Shown: piece by piece, positions 1-8,327 of the stretch | Position numbering within the stretch: position 1 is the stretch's first letter | Layout: the number at the start of each line of letters is the position of its first letter | Program-made: the position numbers and the translations under genes | DNA from: Desulfosoma sp. | GTDB taxonomy: Bacteria > Desulfobacterota > Syntrophobacteria > Syntrophobacterales > DSM-9756 | Direction: 5' to 3' | Assembly (NCBI GenBank): GCA_037481835.1 | Contig: JBBFKW010000003.1 | Location: 67,462 to 131,461, forward strand | Length of the DNA stretch: 64,000 nt | Notes under the pieces: generated by a model | Database searches by the model: none | What the model saw: the letters and a program-made list of their open reading frames with translations, nothing else | Told to the model about the DNA's origin: nothing

Positions 1-1371
1 GCCGTCTATGCCCGCAGGAAGGCGGAGGAGTTCGGCAAGTGGTGCGAGGACAATCTGCGCATCGAATATGCCAAGGGAAAACCCGAGGCCCTTCAGGGCG
101 TGCGGGTCCTTTCCTGCGGCCTGTGGCGCATGGGCCATAAGTTCGCCGCGGGCCTTCTGGGGGAGCTGGGAGCGGAAGTGATTAACGTGGAGCCGCCCGA
201 AGGGGATCCGCTCCGGAAGCTCACGCCCTTCGGCCGCGAAGAATACATGCTGGAAGACAAAAACGGCGACAAGTGCGGCTTGGATTTCATCCATGAACTG
301 CGAAACGCCTATTCCGTGACCCTCAACCTGGAAACGGAAAAGGGCCGGGAACTCTACACCAAGCTCGCACAGCACGCCGACATCCTCATCGAGGAATACC
401 CGCCGGGCTACATGGACCAACTGGGCATCGGATACCGGCAGCTGTCCCAGATCAACCCCAGGCTCATTTACTGCTGGATCGGCGAACACGGCCAGTGGGG
501 GCCCATGAAAGACAAGGTTTCCAAGTACGGCCAGTGGATGCTCGATCCCTTCGGCCAAGCGGCCTGCTCCTTCATCCACAACACGGGCTTTCCCGAAGAC
601 CTGCTCCCTCGCGGCAAGGGCGGCGATCCCACCCGTTCCGGGGTGTGGTTTGCCGACTACGTGGCCGGGGAACAGACGGCGGTGAACGCCCTGGCGGCCC
701 TTTTCTGGCGAGACGAGTTCAGCGGGGAAGGCCAGTTCATCGAGACCACGGCCGCCGAAGCCCTTATGGACATTCTGGACTTCGACATCACGTGGTACGG
801 GTTCAACAAGAGCATCAAGGCCCGAACGGGCGGTTGGGACCCCAACTTAAACCAGTACGCCTGGAACCCGTGTAAAGACGGCTACATGATGATCGGCGGC
901 CAGACGGACCGCCTGTGGTACCGCATCGGCATGTGCATCGAGCGGGAGCTGCCCATCTTCGGGCGCCTTATCCACGAAGACCCGCTCTTGAAAGAAATGG
1001 CCGCCCGCAACGCCCTCCAGGCCCTCACCAAAACCTACACCATGACCACCATGTGGCTGAGGAACATCAACCGCGTGGAAGCCGAAGAAAAACTTATGCA
1101 GTACGAAATCGCGGCCGGTCCGCTGCTCTACATCGACGAAGTGGCCGAGTTCCCGCACTTCAAGTATCGGCCGTGGGTGAACGTGCTGGAAGATGAGGAA
1201 TACGGCACCCTCATGTATGCCGAGTCCACCAACGCCTACCAGATGCGGACTCCGGCCCGCGTGAAGTGGCTCGGGCGGCCTCTGGGCAAGGACAACGCCG
1301 AGATTTTCATGAAATACATCGGCTTGGGGCAAACCGAATTGAGGGAACTCAAGGAACAAGGAGTGGTCTAA
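1..1371 (+). CDS. Class III (CaiB/BaiF) CoA-transferase, subunit 1; 5'-truncated by the window edge
   Basis: Frame 1 is open from base 1. Motifs [47 protein letters not shown]; catalytic-Asp region FADYVAG; GEGQFIE. Confidence 0.9.
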
Positions 1372-1372
1372 G

Positions 1373-2785
1373 ATGAAAGATCAGCGAGTGACCCGAATCG
1401 AAGATCTGCCGGGGCCCAAGAGTCAGGGGGAACTGGAAGAGATGAAGATGCCCTATGAGGAGTATTGCCGGAAGGTCTTCGCCCCGGGGCAGGAGAAGAC
1501 CAAGCCGGAATCCCTCAAGGGCATCCGGTGGCTCAGCACCACCATGTACATCTTCACGCCCCACTCCGTGGCCAACCTGGCCGAACTGGGGGCGGAATGC
1601 ATCAAGGTGGAGATGCCGCGCATGGGCGACCCCATGAGGCACACGTCGCCCTTCAATGAGTGTTATCTCTATCCGCTCCATGACAGCCGTCCCATGACGG
1701 GAACCGGCCTGGGGTTCACCAACGCCAACCCCAACGAATACTACATCTCCATGGACTATCACGTGCCGGAGATGAAAGAAGCTTTTTACCGGCTCGTGAA
1801 ACTGTCCGACGGCCTGACCGAATGTTACCGCCCCGGAACTTTCGACCGCTGGAAACAGAGCTACCGGTATCTCCAGGAGCTCAATCCGCGGTTCATCTAC
1901 GTCTGGGGCGGCGGTTTCGGTTACGGCCCCAAGGTCTTCGGCGGCTCCTACGACATCCTCGGGCAGGCCCACGCCGGCTTGGCCAGCGTCACGGGCTTCC
2001 ATGAAGACTTCGGCGGCCACTGCACCAAGCACTCCAACTGGTGTATCGACTGGTATTCGGGAACCCAGATCACGGTGGCCATCTTGGCGGCCCTGTATTG
2101 GCGCCGCAAGACGGGTCTGGGCACCATGATCGAATTTTCTCAGGTCCAGGCGGCCACCCGTTGCCTCGGCTACACGGTGCCTCTCTACGGCCGGTTCGGC
2201 ATCGTCCGCCAACGGTGGGGCAACTGGGATACCCAGCTGTGCGTCCACGGGATCATCCTGTGCGGCAAGAGCGATTATCCCGATGAGCCCAACCCGCAGC
2301 TCAAGTACGAAGCCCGCTACGCCGTGGTGAGCGCCTTCAACGATCCGGACTTCAAGGAACTGTGCGCCATCATCGGCCGAAATGACCTCTGGGATCAGTA
2401 CAAGACCCTGCAGCAGCGTGTGCGGCCTCAGGCCCAGATCGCCATTTACAAGGCCCTGGAAGAGTGGGCGGCGGACAAGACCCGCTCCCAGGTGGTGAAA
2501 ACCTTGACCGACGCCGGGCTCCTCGCCATGCCCGTCATGAACGACAAGGAAGTGTACGAGTGCGAGCACTTCCGTCAGAGGGGCACCATCCGGTGGCTGG
2601 ATGATCCGGTCTTCGGCGATGTGCTCATCCAGAGCGGCTACAGCTGCGGCCTCATGAGCAAGACCCCTCGCCGGGTCAACTGGATCTGGCGGCCGGTGGG
2701 GGCCGACAATGTGAAGATCTACCACGAAATGCTCGGGTACCCCATGAGCAAGATCGAAGAGTGGTACGAAAAGAACCTCATCTAG
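1373..2785 (+). CDS. Class III CoA-transferase, subunit 2
   Basis: [37 protein letters not shown], catalytic-Asp region [16 protein letters not shown]. Starts 1 nt after the upstream stop. Confidence 0.9.
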
Positions 2786-2801
2786 AGGGGAGGAGCGGCC
2801 G

Positions 2802-3269
2802 ATGTGTGACATCATTTGGTGCAAAGAGTGTGATACGGTCAATTACCTGGATCCGTATTACTTCTGGAATTGGGAAGGCAAGATCAAGTGTGCCGGCTGT
2901 GAAAACGTCTATTACATTTACATGATCCAGGGGCACATGTACAAAGGGCCGGACAAAAAACCCGGGGAAAAGCCGGACATTCTGCCCGTCTACGCAGACA
3001 AACCCAACGACGGCTATGAACAGATCCTTCCCGGAACGCCGGGGAAGACCCGTCCTTACAACTGCTTGCCGCGCCACATCTACCTGGGCCGGGCCGACAT
3101 GGTGAAATTCAGCGCCCGAGGCCGCCCCGTGCGCGGGTGGCGTCCCCAGCCGCCGTCCACGGGTGTGGCGGGATCCTGCGGCTTTACGTGGGATATCCAA
3201 AAACTTTCGCCTGAAGTGTGGCAGGAATACCAGGAAAAGATCAAAAAGGGCGAAGTGGGTGAGTGGTAA
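2802..3269 (+). CDS. Hypothetical protein with N-terminal zinc-ribbon-like CxxC...CxxC
   Basis: CKEC and CAGC pairs about 20 aa apart; strong SD (GGAGGAG) upstream; operonic spacing. Confidence 0.8.
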   Translation: MCDIIWCKECDTVNYLDPYYFWNWEGKIKCAGCENVYYIYMIQGHMYKGPDKKPGEKPDILPVYADKPNDGYEQILPGTPGKTRPYNCLPRHIYLGRADMVKFSARGRPVRGWRPQPPSTGVAGSCGFTWDIQKLSPEVWQEYQEKIKKGEVGEW

Positions 3270-3289
3270 AAGAAAGGAGTGGTGCGACC

Positions 3290-3517
3290 ATGGCAGAGTT
3301 GACTCCCCGGCAATTTCTCGACACCGTCCTGGTGCCCGAGAAGCAGAGCGACCATATTTGCTGGCAGTGCCTCCATCTGAAACCGGCCCTCAAGGGGTCC
3401 AAGTTTCCTCCGGCCGACATCATCGGCTGGTGCAAGAAGATTCACTGGCCTCACTATTGGTGTGTGGCGGACTTCAACGTGGTGAAAAAATGCTTCGCCT
3501 TTGAAGCCAAACAGTAG
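3290..3517 (+). CDS. Small Cys-rich protein (75 aa), possible Fe-S or Zn binding
   Basis: SD AAGGAG before ATG 3290; CWQC-x18-GWC-x9-C-x9-CFAF. Confidence 0.75.
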   Translation: MAELTPRQFLDTVLVPEKQSDHICWQCLHLKPALKGSKFPPADIIGWCKKIHWPHYWCVADFNVVKKCFAFEAKQ

Positions 3518-3524
3518 GACGGCC

Positions 3525-3821
3525 ATGCACGAAGCAATGTTGGAACAGGCACGGATCTTTGCGGCCCAGGAACTGGAACGGCTCAAGTCCATGGTGCTCA
3601 CCTGGAAGGCCAGCTACCTGGACATGGCCGACGGCGACGGCCACGATGATTTCCTCGTGTTGGAATTCGCCCACGAGATCGAGGAATACATGGGCCCATT
3701 CGTCCGGCGGATGCACATGACCCAACAGTTGGACGACGATCAGGTGAGCGCCTTTTGGGACTTTTGTTACGGGCAGGTCAAGGACCTGCGGTCGTCTCTA
3801 TCGACGCAAGAGGAGGGTTAG
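3525..3821 (+). CDS. Hypothetical acidic helical protein (98 aa)
   Basis: Tightly spaced in the operon, AGGA upstream, plausible protein composition. Confidence 0.7.
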   Translation: MHEAMLEQARIFAAQELERLKSMVLTWKASYLDMADGDGHDDFLVLEFAHEIEEYMGPFVRRMHMTQQLDDDQVSAFWDFCYGQVKDLRSSLSTQEEG

Positions 3822-3822
3822 C

Positions 3823-4242
3823 ATGCCCGAAAAATGCCGAGTGAGCGTGTGCGGATTCGACCCCATGCTGGTCCGGGGTTATGTGAAGACGGGCTACAGG
3901 GCCCTGTGGTGGTACTTGCCGGATGACGTCTACAACGACTTCAAGGTCAAACCCGGCGACAAGGTCATCGGACGGCTCCTGGCGGTCTACAACCCCAAGG
4001 GGGAAAAGACGGCGGAGCCCAACGAAGATTTTCGTTGGGAAGCCAGCAAGGAAACGGGCTACGCCGTGCTGCTGCCGCCCGAGGTCATCACCAAGTACGA
4101 ACTCACCGAGTTTCATTTCATCGAGCTCGTGATCAACAAGATCAACGAAGCCGATGTCTATCCCGGTGAGGAAAAGAAAACCAAGTGGTGGCCGAAGGAA
4201 AAAATGAAACTGAGCTATTTCCTGCCCTACGCGGCGCCGTAA
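3823..4242 (+). CDS. Hypothetical protein (139 aa) with an internal duplicated motif
   Basis: SD AGGAGG upstream, 1-nt gap from the previous gene; two TGY...LP.[DE]V repeats. Confidence 0.75.
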   Translation: MPEKCRVSVCGFDPMLVRGYVKTGYRALWWYLPDDVYNDFKVKPGDKVIGRLLAVYNPKGEKTAEPNEDFRWEASKETGYAVLLPPEVITKYELTEFHFIELVINKINEADVYPGEEKKTKWWPKEKMKLSYFLPYAAP

Positions 4243-4250
4243 GACACGGT

Positions 4251-4354
4251 GGGGAAAGCCGTCGATGGTGCGGGCGCGCTCCGTGACAAGCGGCCTTCCC
4301 CATGCAAACGTCGCCCGGGTCGCCGACTCTGTGAACCCAGCGGGTCGGCGGCCC
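4251..4354. other. Two consecutive GC-rich hairpins after the operon end
   Basis: GGGGAAAGCCG 4251-4261 pairs with CGGCCTTCCCC 4291-4301; GGGTCGCCGACTC 4317-4329 pairs with GGGTCGGCGGCCC 4342-4354; no U-tract. Confidence 0.4.
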
Positions 4355-4462
4355 GCCGCGCGCTTCCCTCCCTGACGGGAATCCTGCCGCTGCTCCGAGA
4401 AACTGGATGATTATCGGTGACGACGTGAGTTCGAAATGCTGCCTGATGGAAAGGACCTTCGC

Positions 4463-5689
4463 ATGTTAGCGACCCCCCAGGAAAACGACTACGAAAACCT
4501 TCAGTGCACTCCCTACGAATTGGAAAAACCCACTCAAGGCTGGACGCGTTTGGCCCAGATGACCGAAGAATCGGAGCCGCTTTTCGAGAGCACCTGGTTT
4601 CTCGAGGGGTACAATTTTTCTTCCAACATCTACATCGTCCAGGATGACGGTCTCACCGTCATTGACCCGGGAAACGACTACACAGCCTATCTCCAGTTTT
4701 TCGACTTGGGACTGGACCCGGCTTCCGTCACACGGGTCGTCATTACCCACGGGCATTTCGATCATGCCATGGGCGTCCTGGAACTGTGCAATTACCGGGG
4801 GATCCGCGAAAAGAAGACGATGGAGATCGTCATGCACGAAGCCGGCCCGGAAGAGCTCAAGAAGAACCTGGAGCCTTTGGGTTTTCCCGTGCGTTTTGTC
4901 CAGGGTGGGGAAACCCTTCACACGGGCCGGTTTGCTCTGGAGGTGGTCCATACCCCGGGCCATACCTTCGACGGGATCTGCCTTTACCACAAGGATTCGA
5001 AAAGCCTCTTCAGCGGGGATGCCGTGCTCCCCCACGGCCTTTCGGCGCCGGACAAGCACGGCGGCGGACGCCTGGACCACATGCTCCAGGCCTTCAGAAC
5101 CCTGCGACGCATGGATATCGCCCATGTCCTTCCCGGGCATGGGTGGCCGGTTTTCGGTTTGGGCCCGAGGCTCTTGGAGGCCAGCTACGAGGAAATGATC
5201 AAGCACCTGCTGGGGGTGAGTCGGGAGGTTTCCTGCGAGGAGGCCGCCCGGCACCTGATCGGCAAAGGCTGTCTGGAAGAAGCCTTGTACTGCGCCGAAA
5301 AGTCCATCCGCTGCAATCCGGGGGACGCTTCGGCCTTGCGCGTGAAGGTCCTGTGCCTGAACGACATGGGCCGGTTCGACGAGGCCCTGCAAACCCTCGA
5401 GGGGCTGCAGGCAATCCTCCCGGGCTCGCACCAAGACGACGAGGGGCGCTTCCAAGCCCTCGCCCGCGGTTATGCTCTCATGGGCTTGGGACGCTACGAA
5501 GAGGCCGTCACCGCTTTCGATGAAGTGCTCCGTCGCCATGGGGACGTGAAGGAAGCCCAGATCTACAAGGGGATGGCCTTGTACCTTTCGGGGCGCCAAG
5601 ACGATGCCATGGACATTGAGCCTTTCCGAAGCGAATTCGTGGGGCGGTTCAAAGAGGAGCTGATGCAGAAGGTATCGCAAAAGGATTGA
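4463..5689 (+). CDS. MBL-fold metallo-hydrolase with C-terminal TPR repeats
   Basis: THGHFDH, HTPGHT, FSGD, PGHG motifs; helical TPR-like repeats in the C-terminal part. SD AAGGA favours ATG 4463; alternative start 4436. Confidence 0.85.
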   Translation: MLATPQENDYENLQCTPYELEKPTQGWTRLAQMTEESEPLFESTWFLEGYNFSSNIYIVQDDGLTVIDPGNDYTAYLQFFDLGLDPASVTRVVITHGHFDHAMGVLELCNYRGIREKKTMEIVMHEAGPEELKKNLEPLGFPVRFVQGGETLHTGRFALEVVHTPGHTFDGICLYHKDSKSLFSGDAVLPHGLSAPDKHGGGRLDHMLQAFRTLRRMDIAHVLPGHGWPVFGLGPRLLEASYEEMIKHLLGVSREVSCEEAARHLIGKGCLEEALYCAEKSIRCNPGDASALRVKVLCLNDMGRFDEALQTLEGLQAILPGSHQDDEGRFQALARGYALMGLGRYEEAVTAFDEVLRRHGDVKEAQIYKGMALYLSGRQDDAMDIEPFRSEFVGRFKEELMQKVSQKD

Positions 5690-5788: not shown

Positions 5789-6238
5789 ATGGCATCCAAA
5801 AAGGAACCCTCAAAGGTCTTCTTGTGGGTTTCCCGCGAAGAGGTCCGTCTCCACGCGCTCGAAGCCCTGGCTCAAGTGGGGGCGCAGACGGAGAGCGTTG
5901 AAAGCTTGTCGGCTCTTCTGGAACGCCTCGGGGGTGTCGGTCGCGCCATCGTGATCCTTGACAGCGGGTCGATCCACCATCACGGCCCCACGATCTACGG
6001 GCGCATTCGTGCGGCGTGCAAGAGTTGCCGCCTCATCGTCTTGTGCGCCCAGGACTCCCGCGGGCTGATCCGCGAGGCCATGGAAGCCGGGGTGTACGGC
6101 TGCGTCGTCGAACCCTACGCCCCTTGGGAAATCCAGACCATGGTCCGCCACATCCTCGCCGATTTCGACCATGAAGTCGTGAGCGCCACCAAGCCCCTCC
6201 CCAAGAGCAAAGCCGCGGACGAAATGCCCCACCGTTGA
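5789..6238 (+). CDS. Atypical stand-alone receiver-domain protein
   Basis: CheY-like pattern VILDSG ... LIVLC ... AMEAGVYGCVVEPY; the conserved Lys is replaced by Glu. Confidence 0.65.
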   Translation: MASKKEPSKVFLWVSREEVRLHALEALAQVGAQTESVESLSALLERLGGVGRAIVILDSGSIHHHGPTIYGRIRAACKSCRLIVLCAQDSRGLIREAMEAGVYGCVVEPYAPWEIQTMVRHILADFDHEVVSATKPLPKSKAADEMPHR

Positions 6239-6289
6239 GCCGGATCTTCCGCCCAACCACCCGTCATCAACCGTGTCTAGAAGAGTTTT

Positions 6290-6493
6290 GTTGGGGTTCG
6301 CTGCGCTCACCCCAACCTACGGGTTTGTTGTCGGGCGGCGGGATGAACATGTACGTTGGGACTGGCGGCGCTCACCCCAACCTGCAGCTCAAGCGCGATG
6401 CTGCGCAATTTTTGTTGGGGTTCGCTGCGCTCACCCCAACCTACGGGTTTGTTGTGGAAGATGTAGGTTGGGGTGAGCGGAGCGAACCCCAAC
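6290..6493. repeat. REP family A cluster, 4 copies of a 31-nt GTAG-type palindrome
   Basis: Consensus GTAGGTTGGGGTGAGCG(C/G/A)AGCGAACCCCAAC. Copies 6290-6320(-), 6355-6385(-, degenerate), 6414-6444(-), 6463-6493(+). Confidence 0.9.
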
Positions 6494-6538
6494 GCACAAC
6501 AGGCTCGAGCATGGTTTTTTTCGCAGGAGGGGAGCCTG

Positions 6539-6567
6539 AAAAAAAGGGGCGGGAAAGATCCCGCCCC
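6539..6567 (-). terminator. Intrinsic terminator of aor
   Basis: Minus strand reads GGGGCGGGA-TCTT-TCCCGCCCC followed by T7, just after the aor stop. Confidence 0.8.
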
Positions 6568-6590
6568 ATGTCCCAAGGCCGTGCAAAGGC

Positions 6591-8327
6591 CTACCAGTTG
6601 AAGACTTTGTCCAGTTCTTCATCCGGGACGTCAAAGACGACGTTGTGGGGCGGCAGGGCTTCTTTCTTGAAATAATCGGGCAGTCGGTCGTCCTTGGACG
6701 TGAAGCCCGCCCGCAGATTGAAGTCCCTTTCCATGGACAGGACCTTCTTGCCCAGGGCGGCCACATCGTCTGCGGTCATGTTGAGCCCGTAGAAGGCGTT
6801 GATCATGTCCACCAGGGCCTGGAACGTGTCAGGTTGATCGAGGAGGGCGAAGGCGATGAACAGGCACATGCCGGTGGAGTCGATGGCGGCCGTGGCGATT
6901 TGGAGATTGCGCGACAGCTCCACCTGACCCTGGGGCGACAGGGGATCCACATCCCCGCCCACTTTGAGGATGTTGGTGGCCACAGCGTATCCCGCCGTGT
7001 GATCCGCCCCCATGGTGCTGGTGGCGTAGGTGACCCCGATACCCTTGACGGCCCGCGGGTCGTAGGCGGGCATGGCTTGGCCCTTCACCACGGGGACGCG
7101 TTCCACACCGAAGACTTTGCCGGTTACGGCCGCGCCGCTTCCCAGGATGCGGCCGAGGGGCGTGCCTTTGCCCACTTCCTTGACGAGTTCGATGGCCGCC
7201 TGGGCATCGCCGAACTTGGCCAGGCCGGCTTCCATGGCCACACCGATGGTGGCTCCCATTTCGATGGTGTCGAGGCCGATGTCATCGTCAAGGAAATCGA
7301 TTTGAGCGATGGCGTCCAGATCGTCGATGCCGCAGTTTCCCCCGTGGGCCCACACGGTTTCGTATTCCGGCTGCTTGCTGATGTAGTTGCCGTCTTTGTC
7401 CACGTAGATGCCCGAACAGCGAATGACACAGCCCCGATGACAGCCGTGGGTGGGATTGCCGCCCCGGGCCTTTTCCGTTTCCGCCTGGGTTTCCCCGCTG
7501 ATCTTGGCGGCTCCGGCGAACCGGCCCTCCTTGAAATTGTACGTCGGGTACGCCCCCGCTTCGTTGATGACGTTAGTGAGCACATTGGTCCCGTAGGCAG
7601 GGAGCCCCTGGCCTGTCACGGGGTGGCGCCTCAGACCTTCCACGAAGCGTTTGTTGGCGTCCTTGAATTTTTCCGGATCCTTGGGCGAGCGCATCTTGAC
7701 GCCGGTGTCGTCGAGCACGATGAGCTTGACGCCTTTGGACCCCATGACGGCACCCACGCCGCCCCGGCCCGCATGGCGCGTAGGACGAAGCTCGGGATCC
7801 GTGCAGGCCACCGAGGCCCCTGCCAGTTTCATCTCGCCCGCCTGGCCGATGGAGATGCAGGCGATCTTGTCGCCGTATTCCTCCTTGGCTTTTTCCACGG
7901 TCTTGTAGTTGCCGAGCCCTTTGAGGTCGTTGGCCGGAAGAACCTTCACGCCTTCTTGATTGATGACGATCTTGTAGAGCGTGTCATCCTTGGGCTTGCC
8001 TTCCAGGACGATGGCGGCGTAGCCCAGTCGCCCGAGCACCTGGGCGGGTTGACCGCCGGCATTGGCTTCCTTGATGCCTCCCGTAAGGGGGCTCTTGCAG
8101 CCCACGGATATCCGCCCCGTCATGGCCCCCGTGGTGCCACTCAAGAGCCCCGGCGCGATGACCAGCTTGTTTTCGGCACTCAGGGGATGGCACGTGGGCG
8201 GCACCTCCTTGGACACGATGGCCGACGTCATGGCCCGGCCGCCCAAACCCGCGTACTCTCCCAGAGGTTCCACGCGCACCTTGGGCCCGCCGTCCGCTCC
8301 CATATCCACGCGCAAGATCTTATCCAT
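6591..8327 (-). CDS. aor: Aldehyde:ferredoxin oxidoreductase (tungsten AOR family)
   Basis: KSPLTGGIKEANAGG, GRGGVGAVMGSKGVK, CHRGCVIRC Fe-S motif, EYET, DTIEMG. Confidence 0.95.
   Translation of the reverse strand: MDKILRVDMGADGGPKVRVEPLGEYAGLGGRAMTSAIVSKEVPPTCHPLSAENKLVIAPGLLSGTTGAMTGRISVGCKSPLTGGIKEANAGGQPAQVLGRLGYAAIVLEGKPKDDTLYKIVINQEGVKVLPANDLKGLGNYKTVEKAKEEYGDKIACISIGQAGEMKLAGASVACTDPELRPTRHAGRGGVGAVMGSKGVKLIVLDDTGVKMRSPKDPEKFKDANKRFVEGLRRHPVTGQGLPAYGTNVLTNVINEAGAYPTYNFKEGRFAGAAKISGETQAETEKARGGNPTHGCHRGCVIRCSGIYVDKDGNYISKQPEYETVWAHGGNCGIDDLDAIAQIDFLDDDIGLDTIEMGATIGVAMEAGLAKFGDAQAAIELVKEVGKGTPLGRILGSGAAVTGKVFGVERVPVVKGQAMPAYDPRAVKGIGVTYATSTMGADHTAGYAVATNILKVGGDVDPLSPQGQVELSRNLQIATAAIDSTGMCLFIAFALLDQPDTFQALVDMINAFYGLNMTADDVAALGKKVLSMERDFNLRAGFTSKDDRLPDYFKKEALPPHNVVFDVPDEELDKVFNW

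Follow-up and report, generated by a model that had tools for sequence, protein, structure and literature searches.

A self-contained operon built around a conserved pair of family III CoA-transferase genes in Desulfosoma and in other bacteria and archaea

Among family III coenzyme A (CoA) transferases, homodimers and simple heterodimers are the well-understood forms. The E. coli enzymes Frc/YfdW, YfdE and CaiB are homodimeric products of single genes that lie in known operons (oxc, cai), and the succinyl-CoA:(R)-benzylsuccinate CoA-transferase BbsEF (PDB entry 9fn0) is a heteromeric member of the family encoded by two adjacent paralogous genes. In CarA/CarB (caffeate respiration) and FldA, the transferase moves CoA from product to substrate, and the ligase (CarB) only primes. 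Here we describe an operon at the start of a 64,000-nucleotide (nt) stretch of DNA from Desulfosoma sp. (the window; contig JBBFKW010000003.1 of assembly GCA_037481835.1, handled as G000:C3:67462-131461), in which a pair of such transferase genes (CT1 and CT2) is tied to genes for four proteins that belong to no known family (S155, S84, S106 and S139) and for a putative hydrolase with a metallo-beta-lactamase (MBL) fold and a tetratricopeptide repeat (TPR) domain. The operon is real and complete and stands for a putative multi-subunit form, so far undescribed, of a known enzyme family: a literature search gave no description of a CT1-CT2-S155-S84-S106-S139-(MBL) module. The explanation that we consider probable, though by a limited degree, is that of a complete sigma-54-controlled operon for a multi-subunit enzyme around a heteromeric family III CoA-transferase. 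New here are the start of the operon and its promoter, the division into a core and an accessory unit, a sister module, an association with ligase, U32 and thioesterase genes, an asymmetry between the two Asp sites and a fold assignment for S139.

In a tblastn comparison of the operon proteins with 86 loci, the order CT1-CT2-S155-S84-S106-S139-(MBL) appeared practically throughout; it is kept in about 85 loci that span no fewer than eight phyla of bacteria and two lineages of archaea. The carriers include Desulfobacterota, Aquificota, Acidobacteriota (Terriglobia), Bacillota (Desulfovirgula, Ammonifex), Methylomirabilota, Chloroflexota, Margulisiibacteriota, Thermosulfidibacter, Archaeoglobus and Thermoplasmata. 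In a scan of one genome per species, 195 stretches encode a relative, the nearest being those of a Desulfosoma metagenome-assembled genome (MAG; 99% identical) and of Desulfacinum (93-94%), and the set is present in at least 195 species altogether. Within the phylum of the window, 40 of the 401 sampled genomes have a relative of S155, by our count 31 of them the canonical type, and about 8% of the sampled genomes carry the set. The members of the module differ in their identity to the window across phyla (Table 1), and orthologues of CT1 over about 75 loci are 59-97% identical. Since the identity of CT1, CT2 and S155 is high across phyla (65-80%) while that of S106 is low (25-45%) in the very same loci, the slowly changing members are strongly constrained and not recently transferred.

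A sequence-only reading of the window had grouped the four small open reading frames (ORFs) with the transferases, and in essentially every locus examined they do co-occur. It had overlooked the MBL-TPR gene, which follows S139 in about 65 loci and with which the conserved unit comprises seven genes. There is hardly any chance that the small ORFs are accidental frames in GC-rich DNA: the first 12 kb of the window do have a GC content of 57-63% and many long shadow ORFs, but the homologues of each small protein number from dozens to hundreds, show invariant residues and are always in the same order, also in low-GC genomes and in archaea. Because each of them is conserved in the same order across about 85 independent loci, they are real genes. 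Beyond the seven genes, only a gene for a sigma-54 activator (34-36 loci) and one for a receiver-like protein (33-35 loci) recur. Clustering of the flanking ORFs and a Pfam scan of about 296 nearest neighbours, taken from about 75 loci, gave no constant catabolic partner; the frequent neighbours (YicC, DUF4416, guanylate kinase and QueC) reflect lineage synteny, next to a slight excess of GNAT acetyltransferases. As no neighbour is constant outside the seven genes, the module is self-contained.

The window begins inside CT1. The sequence-only reading had taken the genes for the distal half of a catabolic pathway that continues upstream, with the small proteins as possible subunits of an enzyme encoded there, and the fact that CT1 runs past the 5' end of the window could be cited in its favour. 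The 18 kb of upstream sequence (read as L002) overturned both claims. CT1 starts only 117 nt before window base 1 and is preceded by a non-coding leader of 690 nt, in front of which lies a gene for a sigma-54 enhancer-binding protein of 751 amino acids (aa) and, further upstream, HDOD, Dus and ABC-transporter genes; moreover, no enzyme gene is constantly found upstream of the module in about 75 loci. As the upstream region thus holds only a leader, a putative promoter and an activator, followed by unrelated genes, the operon is not a distal half but begins at CT1 and is self-contained, and we now consider the idea of a longer operon very improbable.

The layout of the upstream region leads directly to the question of regulation. 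The activator combines an AAA+ sigma-54 interaction domain and a Fis-type helix-turn-helix domain with a divergent N-terminal sensor that has faint PAS matches only. Within the leader, TGGCTCGGATTTTGT is found about 460 nt 5' of the CT1 ATG, with the activator gene adjacent, and this block is kept, together with the GTGAAATGAAnCAC inverted repeat directly upstream of it, in the Desulfosoma MAG and in three Desulfacinum genomes. Phylogenetic footprinting, through which alone the motif emerged, recovered TGGC-N7-TTG[TA] upstream of CT1 in 24 of the 33 scanned activator-bearing loci versus 1 of the 29 loci without an activator (three more of these 29 have a TTGC variant); its commonest form is TGGCAGGnnTyTTG[TA]A. 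The sigma-54 consensus that served as reference has a -24 GG and a -12 GC element (TGGCAC-N5-TTGCW); the -24 element and the spacing of the motif agree with it, but the -12 element reads TTGT or TTGA and not TTGC, and a search of the leader for the canonical TGGC-N8-TGC found no site. We infer that TGGC-N7-TTGT is a putative sigma-54 promoter, the -12 element of which is conserved despite its unusual form. The inverted repeat at L002:17394-17407 (GTGAAATGAAGCAC), about 590 nt before window base 1 and about 20 nt 5' of the TGGC element, is CRP/FNR-like (TGTGA-N6-nCACA in Desulfacinum) and may be the site of a second regulator or the binding site of the activator.

The long leader gave no riboswitch in an Rfam search. 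In one sub-clade (loci in Table 1) the leaders contain a long hairpin directly 3' of the sigma-54-type promoter, the apex of which (GGUGGGGCC) is nearly invariant while its stems are wholly divergent; compensatory changes occur at 10 of the 15 predicted pairs, and the hairpin could be a cis-regulatory RNA element. In the window, a GGTGGGAG block some 125 nt 5' of CT1 shows no more than a loose similarity to it. On the other side of the module, a homologue of the receiver-like gene follows in 33-35 loci, mostly those that also bear the activator. The protein scores 26.7 bits against PF00072 (cut-off 30.2), and a direct reading of its sequence showed neither the acidic pair usual at the N-terminus nor the conserved Lys in evident form; it is a lineage-specific regulatory add-on and probably an atypical or pseudo receiver.

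Within the window, the six packed genes of the sequence-only reading, two divergent family III transferases followed by four small proteins on the plus strand, agree with the ORF list. With ATG starts, the gaps from CT1 to S139 are 1, 16, 20, 7 and 1 nt, with CT2 starting 1 nt past the stop of CT1; S84 and S106 have possible alternative starts at a GTG (3263) and a TTG (3501), respectively, which would give proteins of 84 and 106 aa. The strong Shine-Dalgarno sites that the reading had ascribed to the set are indeed present 5' of CT2, S155, S84 and S139 (AAGGAG/GGAGG-type motifs), but that of S106 is a weaker AGGA. The reading was also right about two Cys-rich small proteins (S155 and S84), about N-terminal extensions on both transferases and about the retention of the catalytic Asp in each. 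The spacer between S139 and the MBL-TPR gene (window 4243-4435; 194 nt) is GC-rich and long when compared to the gaps of 1-20 nt within the operon. No T-rich terminator was found on inspection of this spacer, and the MBL start has a weak Shine-Dalgarno motif only; processing or attenuation within the operon could take place at the spacer, or it could hold a second promoter.

The transferases themselves are members of family III. PF02515 (cut-off 23.3) scores 234 bits for CT1 (E ~4e-69 to 5e-69) and 222 bits for CT2 (E 2e-65), and both cover positions 1-365 of the 366 in the profile; as the domain begins at residue 70 in CT1 and at residue 48 in CT2, both carry N-terminal extensions (50-70 aa). 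Asp258 of CT1 (full-length numbering), within FADYVAG, aligns with the Asp of 4ed9, and Asp226 of CT2, within CIDWYSG, with that of 3ubm, at what we take to be the position of the catalytic Asp on which family III transferases form an acyl-aspartyl anhydride intermediate. D226 is kept in 69 of 69 CT2 orthologues and D258 in 59 of 64 CT1 orthologues, the remaining five (L017, L023, L024, L037 and L041) having a Ser, with LPSYV in place of ADYV. Since D226 is invariant and the CT1 Asp was lost in one lineage, only the CT2 site appears to be universally required, which suggests that the active site of CT1 is dispensable in that lineage. CT2 is the more conserved subunit, with 204 of its 470 positions being at least 97% invariant.

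CT1 and CT2 share about 29% identity and fall outside every characterised clade. The best PDB match of CT1 is 4ed9 (E 1.4e-26) and that of CT2 is BbsF (9fn0_B, E 9.5e-25); the PDB relatives (4ed9, BbsF, Frc, YfdW, YfdE, SUGCT, CaiB and AMACR; E ~1e-11 to 1e-26) are about 25-30% identical to the pair, as read off the printed alignments. The NCBIfam equivalogs (Frc, YfdE, CaiB and the mesaconate and glutarate CoA-transferases) have cut-offs of 413-750 bits, far above the 73-134 bits that CT1 and CT2 score, the best equivalog per transferase reaching 129.6-134 bits. In a maximum-likelihood tree, calculated without BbsEF, SptAB, FldA and DddD, CT1 and CT2 each form a clade with 100/100 support, and all well-supported sister pairs agree between the two; E. 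coli CaiB, Frc and YfdE and two single-gene paralogues from the Desulfosoma genome itself constitute the outgroup to the CT1/CT2 superclade. Elsewhere in the same genome lie three other tandem pairs of family III transferases with extensions, 28-34% identical to CT1/CT2, that form two paralogue groups in the tree, beside or between the CT1 and CT2 clades; small Cys-rich ORFs are absent after all three (contigs C8, C9 and C15).

Another view is that the pair is not a simple transferase but an enzyme that converts CoA esters, i.e. a DddD-like lyase, an AMACR-like racemase or an Mct-like intramolecular transferase; the metal-binding subunits would then add chemistry, and hydrolysis of the final thioester would fall to the MBL protein. 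The family does hold non-transferases, AMACR is among the PDB matches of CT1, and the two-Asp pair recalls the tandem architecture that is generally known for DddD; in addition, the very high conservation and four extra subunits would be odd for a plain transferase, and the module is self-contained and has a dedicated thioesterase-like partner. Yet no feature specific to DddD, AMACR or Mct was found, the relatives being equally distant (about 25-30%), and a recognisable redox or radical cofactor domain is lacking. We regard such an enzyme as rather unlikely.

None of the four small proteins matched a family in sequence searches against Pfam, NCBIfam and the PDB. S155 has 114 homologues, mostly 60-97% identical, that include Archaeoglobus and Thermoplasmata records and are all labelled unnamed or 'hypothetical'. 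It has a putative N-terminal Zn ribbon (C7, C10, C30, C33), in which C10, C30 and C33 are invariant and C7, like C88 further on, nearly so, as well as an NYLDPxxFWNW motif. Its AlphaFold2 model (predicted local distance difference test, pLDDT, 84; predicted template-modelling score, pTM, 0.56) contains long well-predicted non-regular segments, a shape that would fit a subunit that wraps round its partners; Foldseek against the PDB returned only a zinc finger at E 1.3, and a profile search against the PDB nothing. Two divergent homologues (P0109, P0110) were expected in another context, yet both turned out to lie within the same module. In S84, H22, C24, C27, C48 and C68 are invariant among 33 sequences, and the protein probably binds a metal or an Fe-S cluster. 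The profile of these sequences gave a single chance match among all PDB chains (E 1.4), and the protein has no match in Pfam. The sequence lends no support to a candidate role as a BssB/BssC-type Fe-S small subunit of a glycyl-radical enzyme, as this profile showed no relationship to the solved small subunits; glycyl-radical enzyme genes were absent among the module neighbours examined. S106 is the least conserved member (24-66% identity across loci, with E24 and W35 invariant), is probably helical judging from its sequence, and has no match in the PDB or Pfam.

S139 is the small protein for which a model is most informative (pLDDT 94, pTM 0.88). Its best and single PDB match is 2glw (PhS018; probability 1.00, E 0.014, TM 0.43/0.60), a single-chain swapped-hairpin (AbrB-like) barrel, and the predicted fold of S139 resembles such a barrel. 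Among 1.8 billion representatives, an exhaustive phmmer search found no more than 21 matches, nearly all inside its own family; of two candidate distant relatives (P0131, P0130), one appears to consist of low-complexity repeats and the other probably stems from a chimeric assembly, and both were discarded. Swapped-hairpin barrels occur in AbrB/MazE-type DNA binders, and some or all of the small proteins might accordingly be regulators or chaperones, with S139 as an AbrB-like DNA or RNA binder and S155 as a Zn-ribbon regulator. Besides the S139 model, the conserved leader hairpin of one sub-clade and the separability of S106-S139-MBL from the core would agree with this. However, S139 (54-100%) and S155 (about 70%) show an identity across phyla well above that usual for regulators, there is translational coupling between the small genes and those of the enzyme, and the small genes persist in archaea and bacteria with different transcription machinery, also where the sigma-54 activator is missing, which makes a regulatory or chaperone role quite unlikely.

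The seventh protein, MBL-TPR, has an N-terminal MBL fold of the glyoxalase II/thioesterase type with the motif THGHFDH (PF00753, 99.8 bits, E 2.5e-28) and a C-terminal TPR domain. Its best PDB match is the YcbL glyoxalase II (2xf4, E 1.6e-13), with LACTB2 and the 2-aminobenzoylacetyl-CoA thioesterase PqsE (E 1.8e-5) also near, and it scores 50.4 bits against the GloB equivalog (cut-off 200.8). The protein is most likely a thioester (acyl-CoA) hydrolase.

How the seven genes are arranged differs between lineages. In Archaeoglobus, CT1-CT2-S155-S84 form one unit and S106-S139-MBL lie on the opposite strand; in Thermoplasmata, CT1-CT2 are divergent from S155-S84-S106-S139-MBL; and in another archaeal contig, S139-MBL come first, followed by CT1-CT2-S155-S84. 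A five-gene version without S106 and MBL is found in six loci (L056, L062, L072, L078, L082 and L083), in three MAGs alongside a full copy. Furthermore, next to the canonical modules (type A) there is a sister module (type B; Table 1) that consists of CT1' (45-50% identical), CT2' (45-51%), an S155' of 137 aa and then an S84' of 62 aa, without S106, S139 and MBL; S155 is thus represented in both types. Because these arrangements separate them, CT1, CT2, S155 and S84 constitute an invariant core, and S106, S139 and MBL-TPR an accessory unit. Individual copies have neighbours of their own: TauE adjoins the Archaeoglobus copy, a DeoC/LacD aldolase and a Zn-type alcohol dehydrogenase follow the type B module in L095 and L097, and in L093 a protein of the histone-deacetylase family comes after an acyl-CoA ligase. 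A CoA-dependent glyoxalase-like or desulfonation role was considered and dropped, as the neighbour cues (TauE; aldolase and dehydrogenase) come from one to three loci each.

Some clues regarding the substrate come from the genes that adjoin the module in part of the loci. Three type B loci (L092, L093 and L096) have further genes in the operon after the core, for a 125-aa protein and for an AMP-forming acyl-CoA ligase, with a YbgC-type thioesterase and a U32 (UbiU/TrhP-like) gene nearby. Ligases of the same family lie beside type A modules in Archaeoglobus (L003), Thermoplasmata (L006), Desulfovirgula (L034), L064, L073 and L087; these are 39-58% identical to the L093 ligase, and the range over type A and type B loci together is 39-74%. 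U32 genes are found in 9 loci and 4HBT thioesterases in 8, and in Desulfovirgula (L034) the ligase is accompanied by a Liv-type ABC importer. The closest PDB relatives of the ligase are anthranilate- and benzoate-CoA ligases and ACSM2A; it scores just below the cut-off of the benzoate-CoA-ligase subfamily and under all NCBIfam equivalogs. An orthologue of the ligase (48% identical) lies in the Desulfosoma genome at C16:107.5-109.1 kb, in a locus (G000:C16:101849-109126) without linkage to the operon. The ORFs that follow it there resemble a Liv-type ABC importer in size and N-terminal sequence only, a pairing that matches the one beside the module in Desulfovirgula. Together, the recurrent ligase, thioesterase and U32 genes give a weak hint of a medium-size or aromatic carboxylate as substrate, and an aromatic or unusual acid is possible; because the association covers about 10% of the type A loci and the ligase falls below every NCBIfam cut-off, the pointer to a substrate class is a faint one.

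Taken as a sigma-54-controlled operon for a multi-subunit transferase, the module could work as follows. CT1 and CT2 would form the catalytic pair, in which an acyl-CoA donates its CoA to a free carboxylic acid via Asp226 of CT2, and S155 (with its Zn ribbon) and S84 (with its His/Cys4 site) would most likely be obligate metal-binding core subunits. S106, S139 and MBL-TPR would act as a second, separable unit, in which the MBL domain, docked via the TPR domain, most likely hydrolyses a thioester and thereby releases or proof-reads the product. The TGGC-N7-TTGT promoter about 460 nt 5' of CT1 would probably be switched on by the adjacent activator. Where a ligase is present, it might prime a 'CoA loop' in which the transferase recycles CoA. 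Several points weigh against this explanation. The physical complex is deduced only from co-occurrence, coupling and conservation, and the literature search gave no biochemical, expression or structural data on any member of the module; the -12 element departs from the canonical TTGC; the fold of S139 is shared with DNA-binding regulators; the ligase/U32/thioesterase association is restricted to that tenth of the type A loci; and a transferase together with a thioesterase would look futile unless some chemistry intervenes.

A bolder version of the same explanation, which we put forward tentatively and as doubtful, is a new kind of CoA-dependent complex: its heteromeric transferase core, with two dedicated subunits that bind a metal or an Fe-S cluster, would do more than exchange CoA and would convert a medium-size or aromatic acyl-CoA. 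This would take place inside a self-priming CoA loop, and the product would be edited or released by a thioesterase unit of the complex's own. If true, this would mean a widespread, unrecognised step in anaerobic carbon metabolism that was spread by horizontal transfer between bacteria and archaea. Conservation this high (65-80% identity of the transferases from Archaeoglobus to Acidobacteriota) in a set whose function is not known shows that our picture of anaerobic metabolism has a real gap, which may concern sulfate reducers, syntrophs and thermophilic autotrophs especially. Because the set is compact and self-contained and has cultured carriers (Desulfacinum infernum DSM 9756, D. hydrothermale DSM 13146 and Desulfovirgula thermocuniculi DSM 16036), the question is directly testable.

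The positions of the operon members and of the other features mentioned are collected in Table 1. Downstream of the module, in window 6235-6600, overlapping ORFs in different frames share the repeated peptide GFAALTPTYGFVV, which points to a direct DNA repeat between the receiver-like gene and a convergent gene for an aldehyde:ferredoxin oxidoreductase.

Table 1. Features of the operon and related elements; unprefixed positions refer to the window, and identity is that to the window protein across phyla
Feature	Position	Strand	Remarks	Identity
CT1, family III CoA-transferase subunit	1..1371	+	5' end outside window; PF02515	59-85%
CT1, full length	L002:17884-19371	+	495 aa; first 39 codons upstream of window	
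CT2, family III CoA-transferase subunit	1373..2785	+	470 aa; PF02515	69-86%
S155, Zn-ribbon protein without known family	2802..3269	+	155 aa	62-80%
S84, small His/Cys4 protein	3290..3517	+	75 aa from ATG	53-85%
S106	3525..3821	+	98 aa from ATG at 3525	28-49%
S139, AbrB-like barrel model	3823..4242	+	139 aa	51-72%
MBL-TPR protein	4436..5689	+	417 aa; seventh conserved member; PF00753 and TPR families	37-51%
Receiver-like protein	5789..6238	+	149 aa; PF00072 below cut-off	
Tandem transferase pair, same genome	C9:40898-43639			
Tandem transferase pair, same genome	C8:76672-79470			
Tandem transferase pair, same genome	C15:46930-49658			
Type B modules	L092-L097		G197:C4, G029:C11, G373:C1, G009:C9, G310:C50, G051:C23	
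Leader hairpin, sub-clade	L016:6781-6830			
Leader hairpin, sub-clade	L017:6792-6841			
Leader hairpin, sub-clade	L023:6793-6842			
Leader hairpin, sub-clade	L024:6754-6803			
Leader hairpin, sub-clade	L026:6775-6824			
Leader hairpin, sub-clade	L030:6795-6844			
Leader hairpin, sub-clade	L037:6205-6254			
Leader hairpin, sub-clade	L041:3286-3335			
Leader hairpin, sub-clade	L042:6743-6792			

In comparison with the described systems, the module is most readily set beside BbsEF, which is likewise a heteromeric family III transferase from two adjacent paralogous genes; BbsF is the top PDB match of CT2, and the remaining 9fn0 chains are among the matches of CT1. BbsEF differs in that the identity is about 25-30% (E 1e-13 to 1e-25 for the alignments with the 9fn0 chains) and that it has no partners of the S155, S84, S106, S139 or MBL type, and CT1 and CT2 carry extensions of 50-70 aa; genes for bbs beta-oxidation or benzylsuccinate synthase were absent near the module in all loci examined. 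Frc/YfdW, YfdE and CaiB share the Pfam family and the aligned active-site Asp with CT1 and CT2, but, unlike these, are each made from one gene. With FldA, a family III enzyme of the FldABC phenyllactate dehydratase, and with CarA/CarB, the module may have in common that a transferase works within a larger system, and the recurrent ligase beside the module fits their logic; this likeness is a functional one, and the module differs from both in lacking genes for a dehydratase, an activator ATPase, an acyl-CoA reductase and Etf. At the level of the partner proteins, the YcbL/GloB glyoxalases II and PqsE share the MBL fold and the HxHxDH motif with MBL-TPR, though not its C-terminal TPR domain. 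Finally, PhS018 and the AbrB-type barrels match S139 in predicted fold and have no detectable sequence similarity to it; when compared to PhS018, S139 has an extra C-terminal segment and is found only in the CT1-CT2 module.

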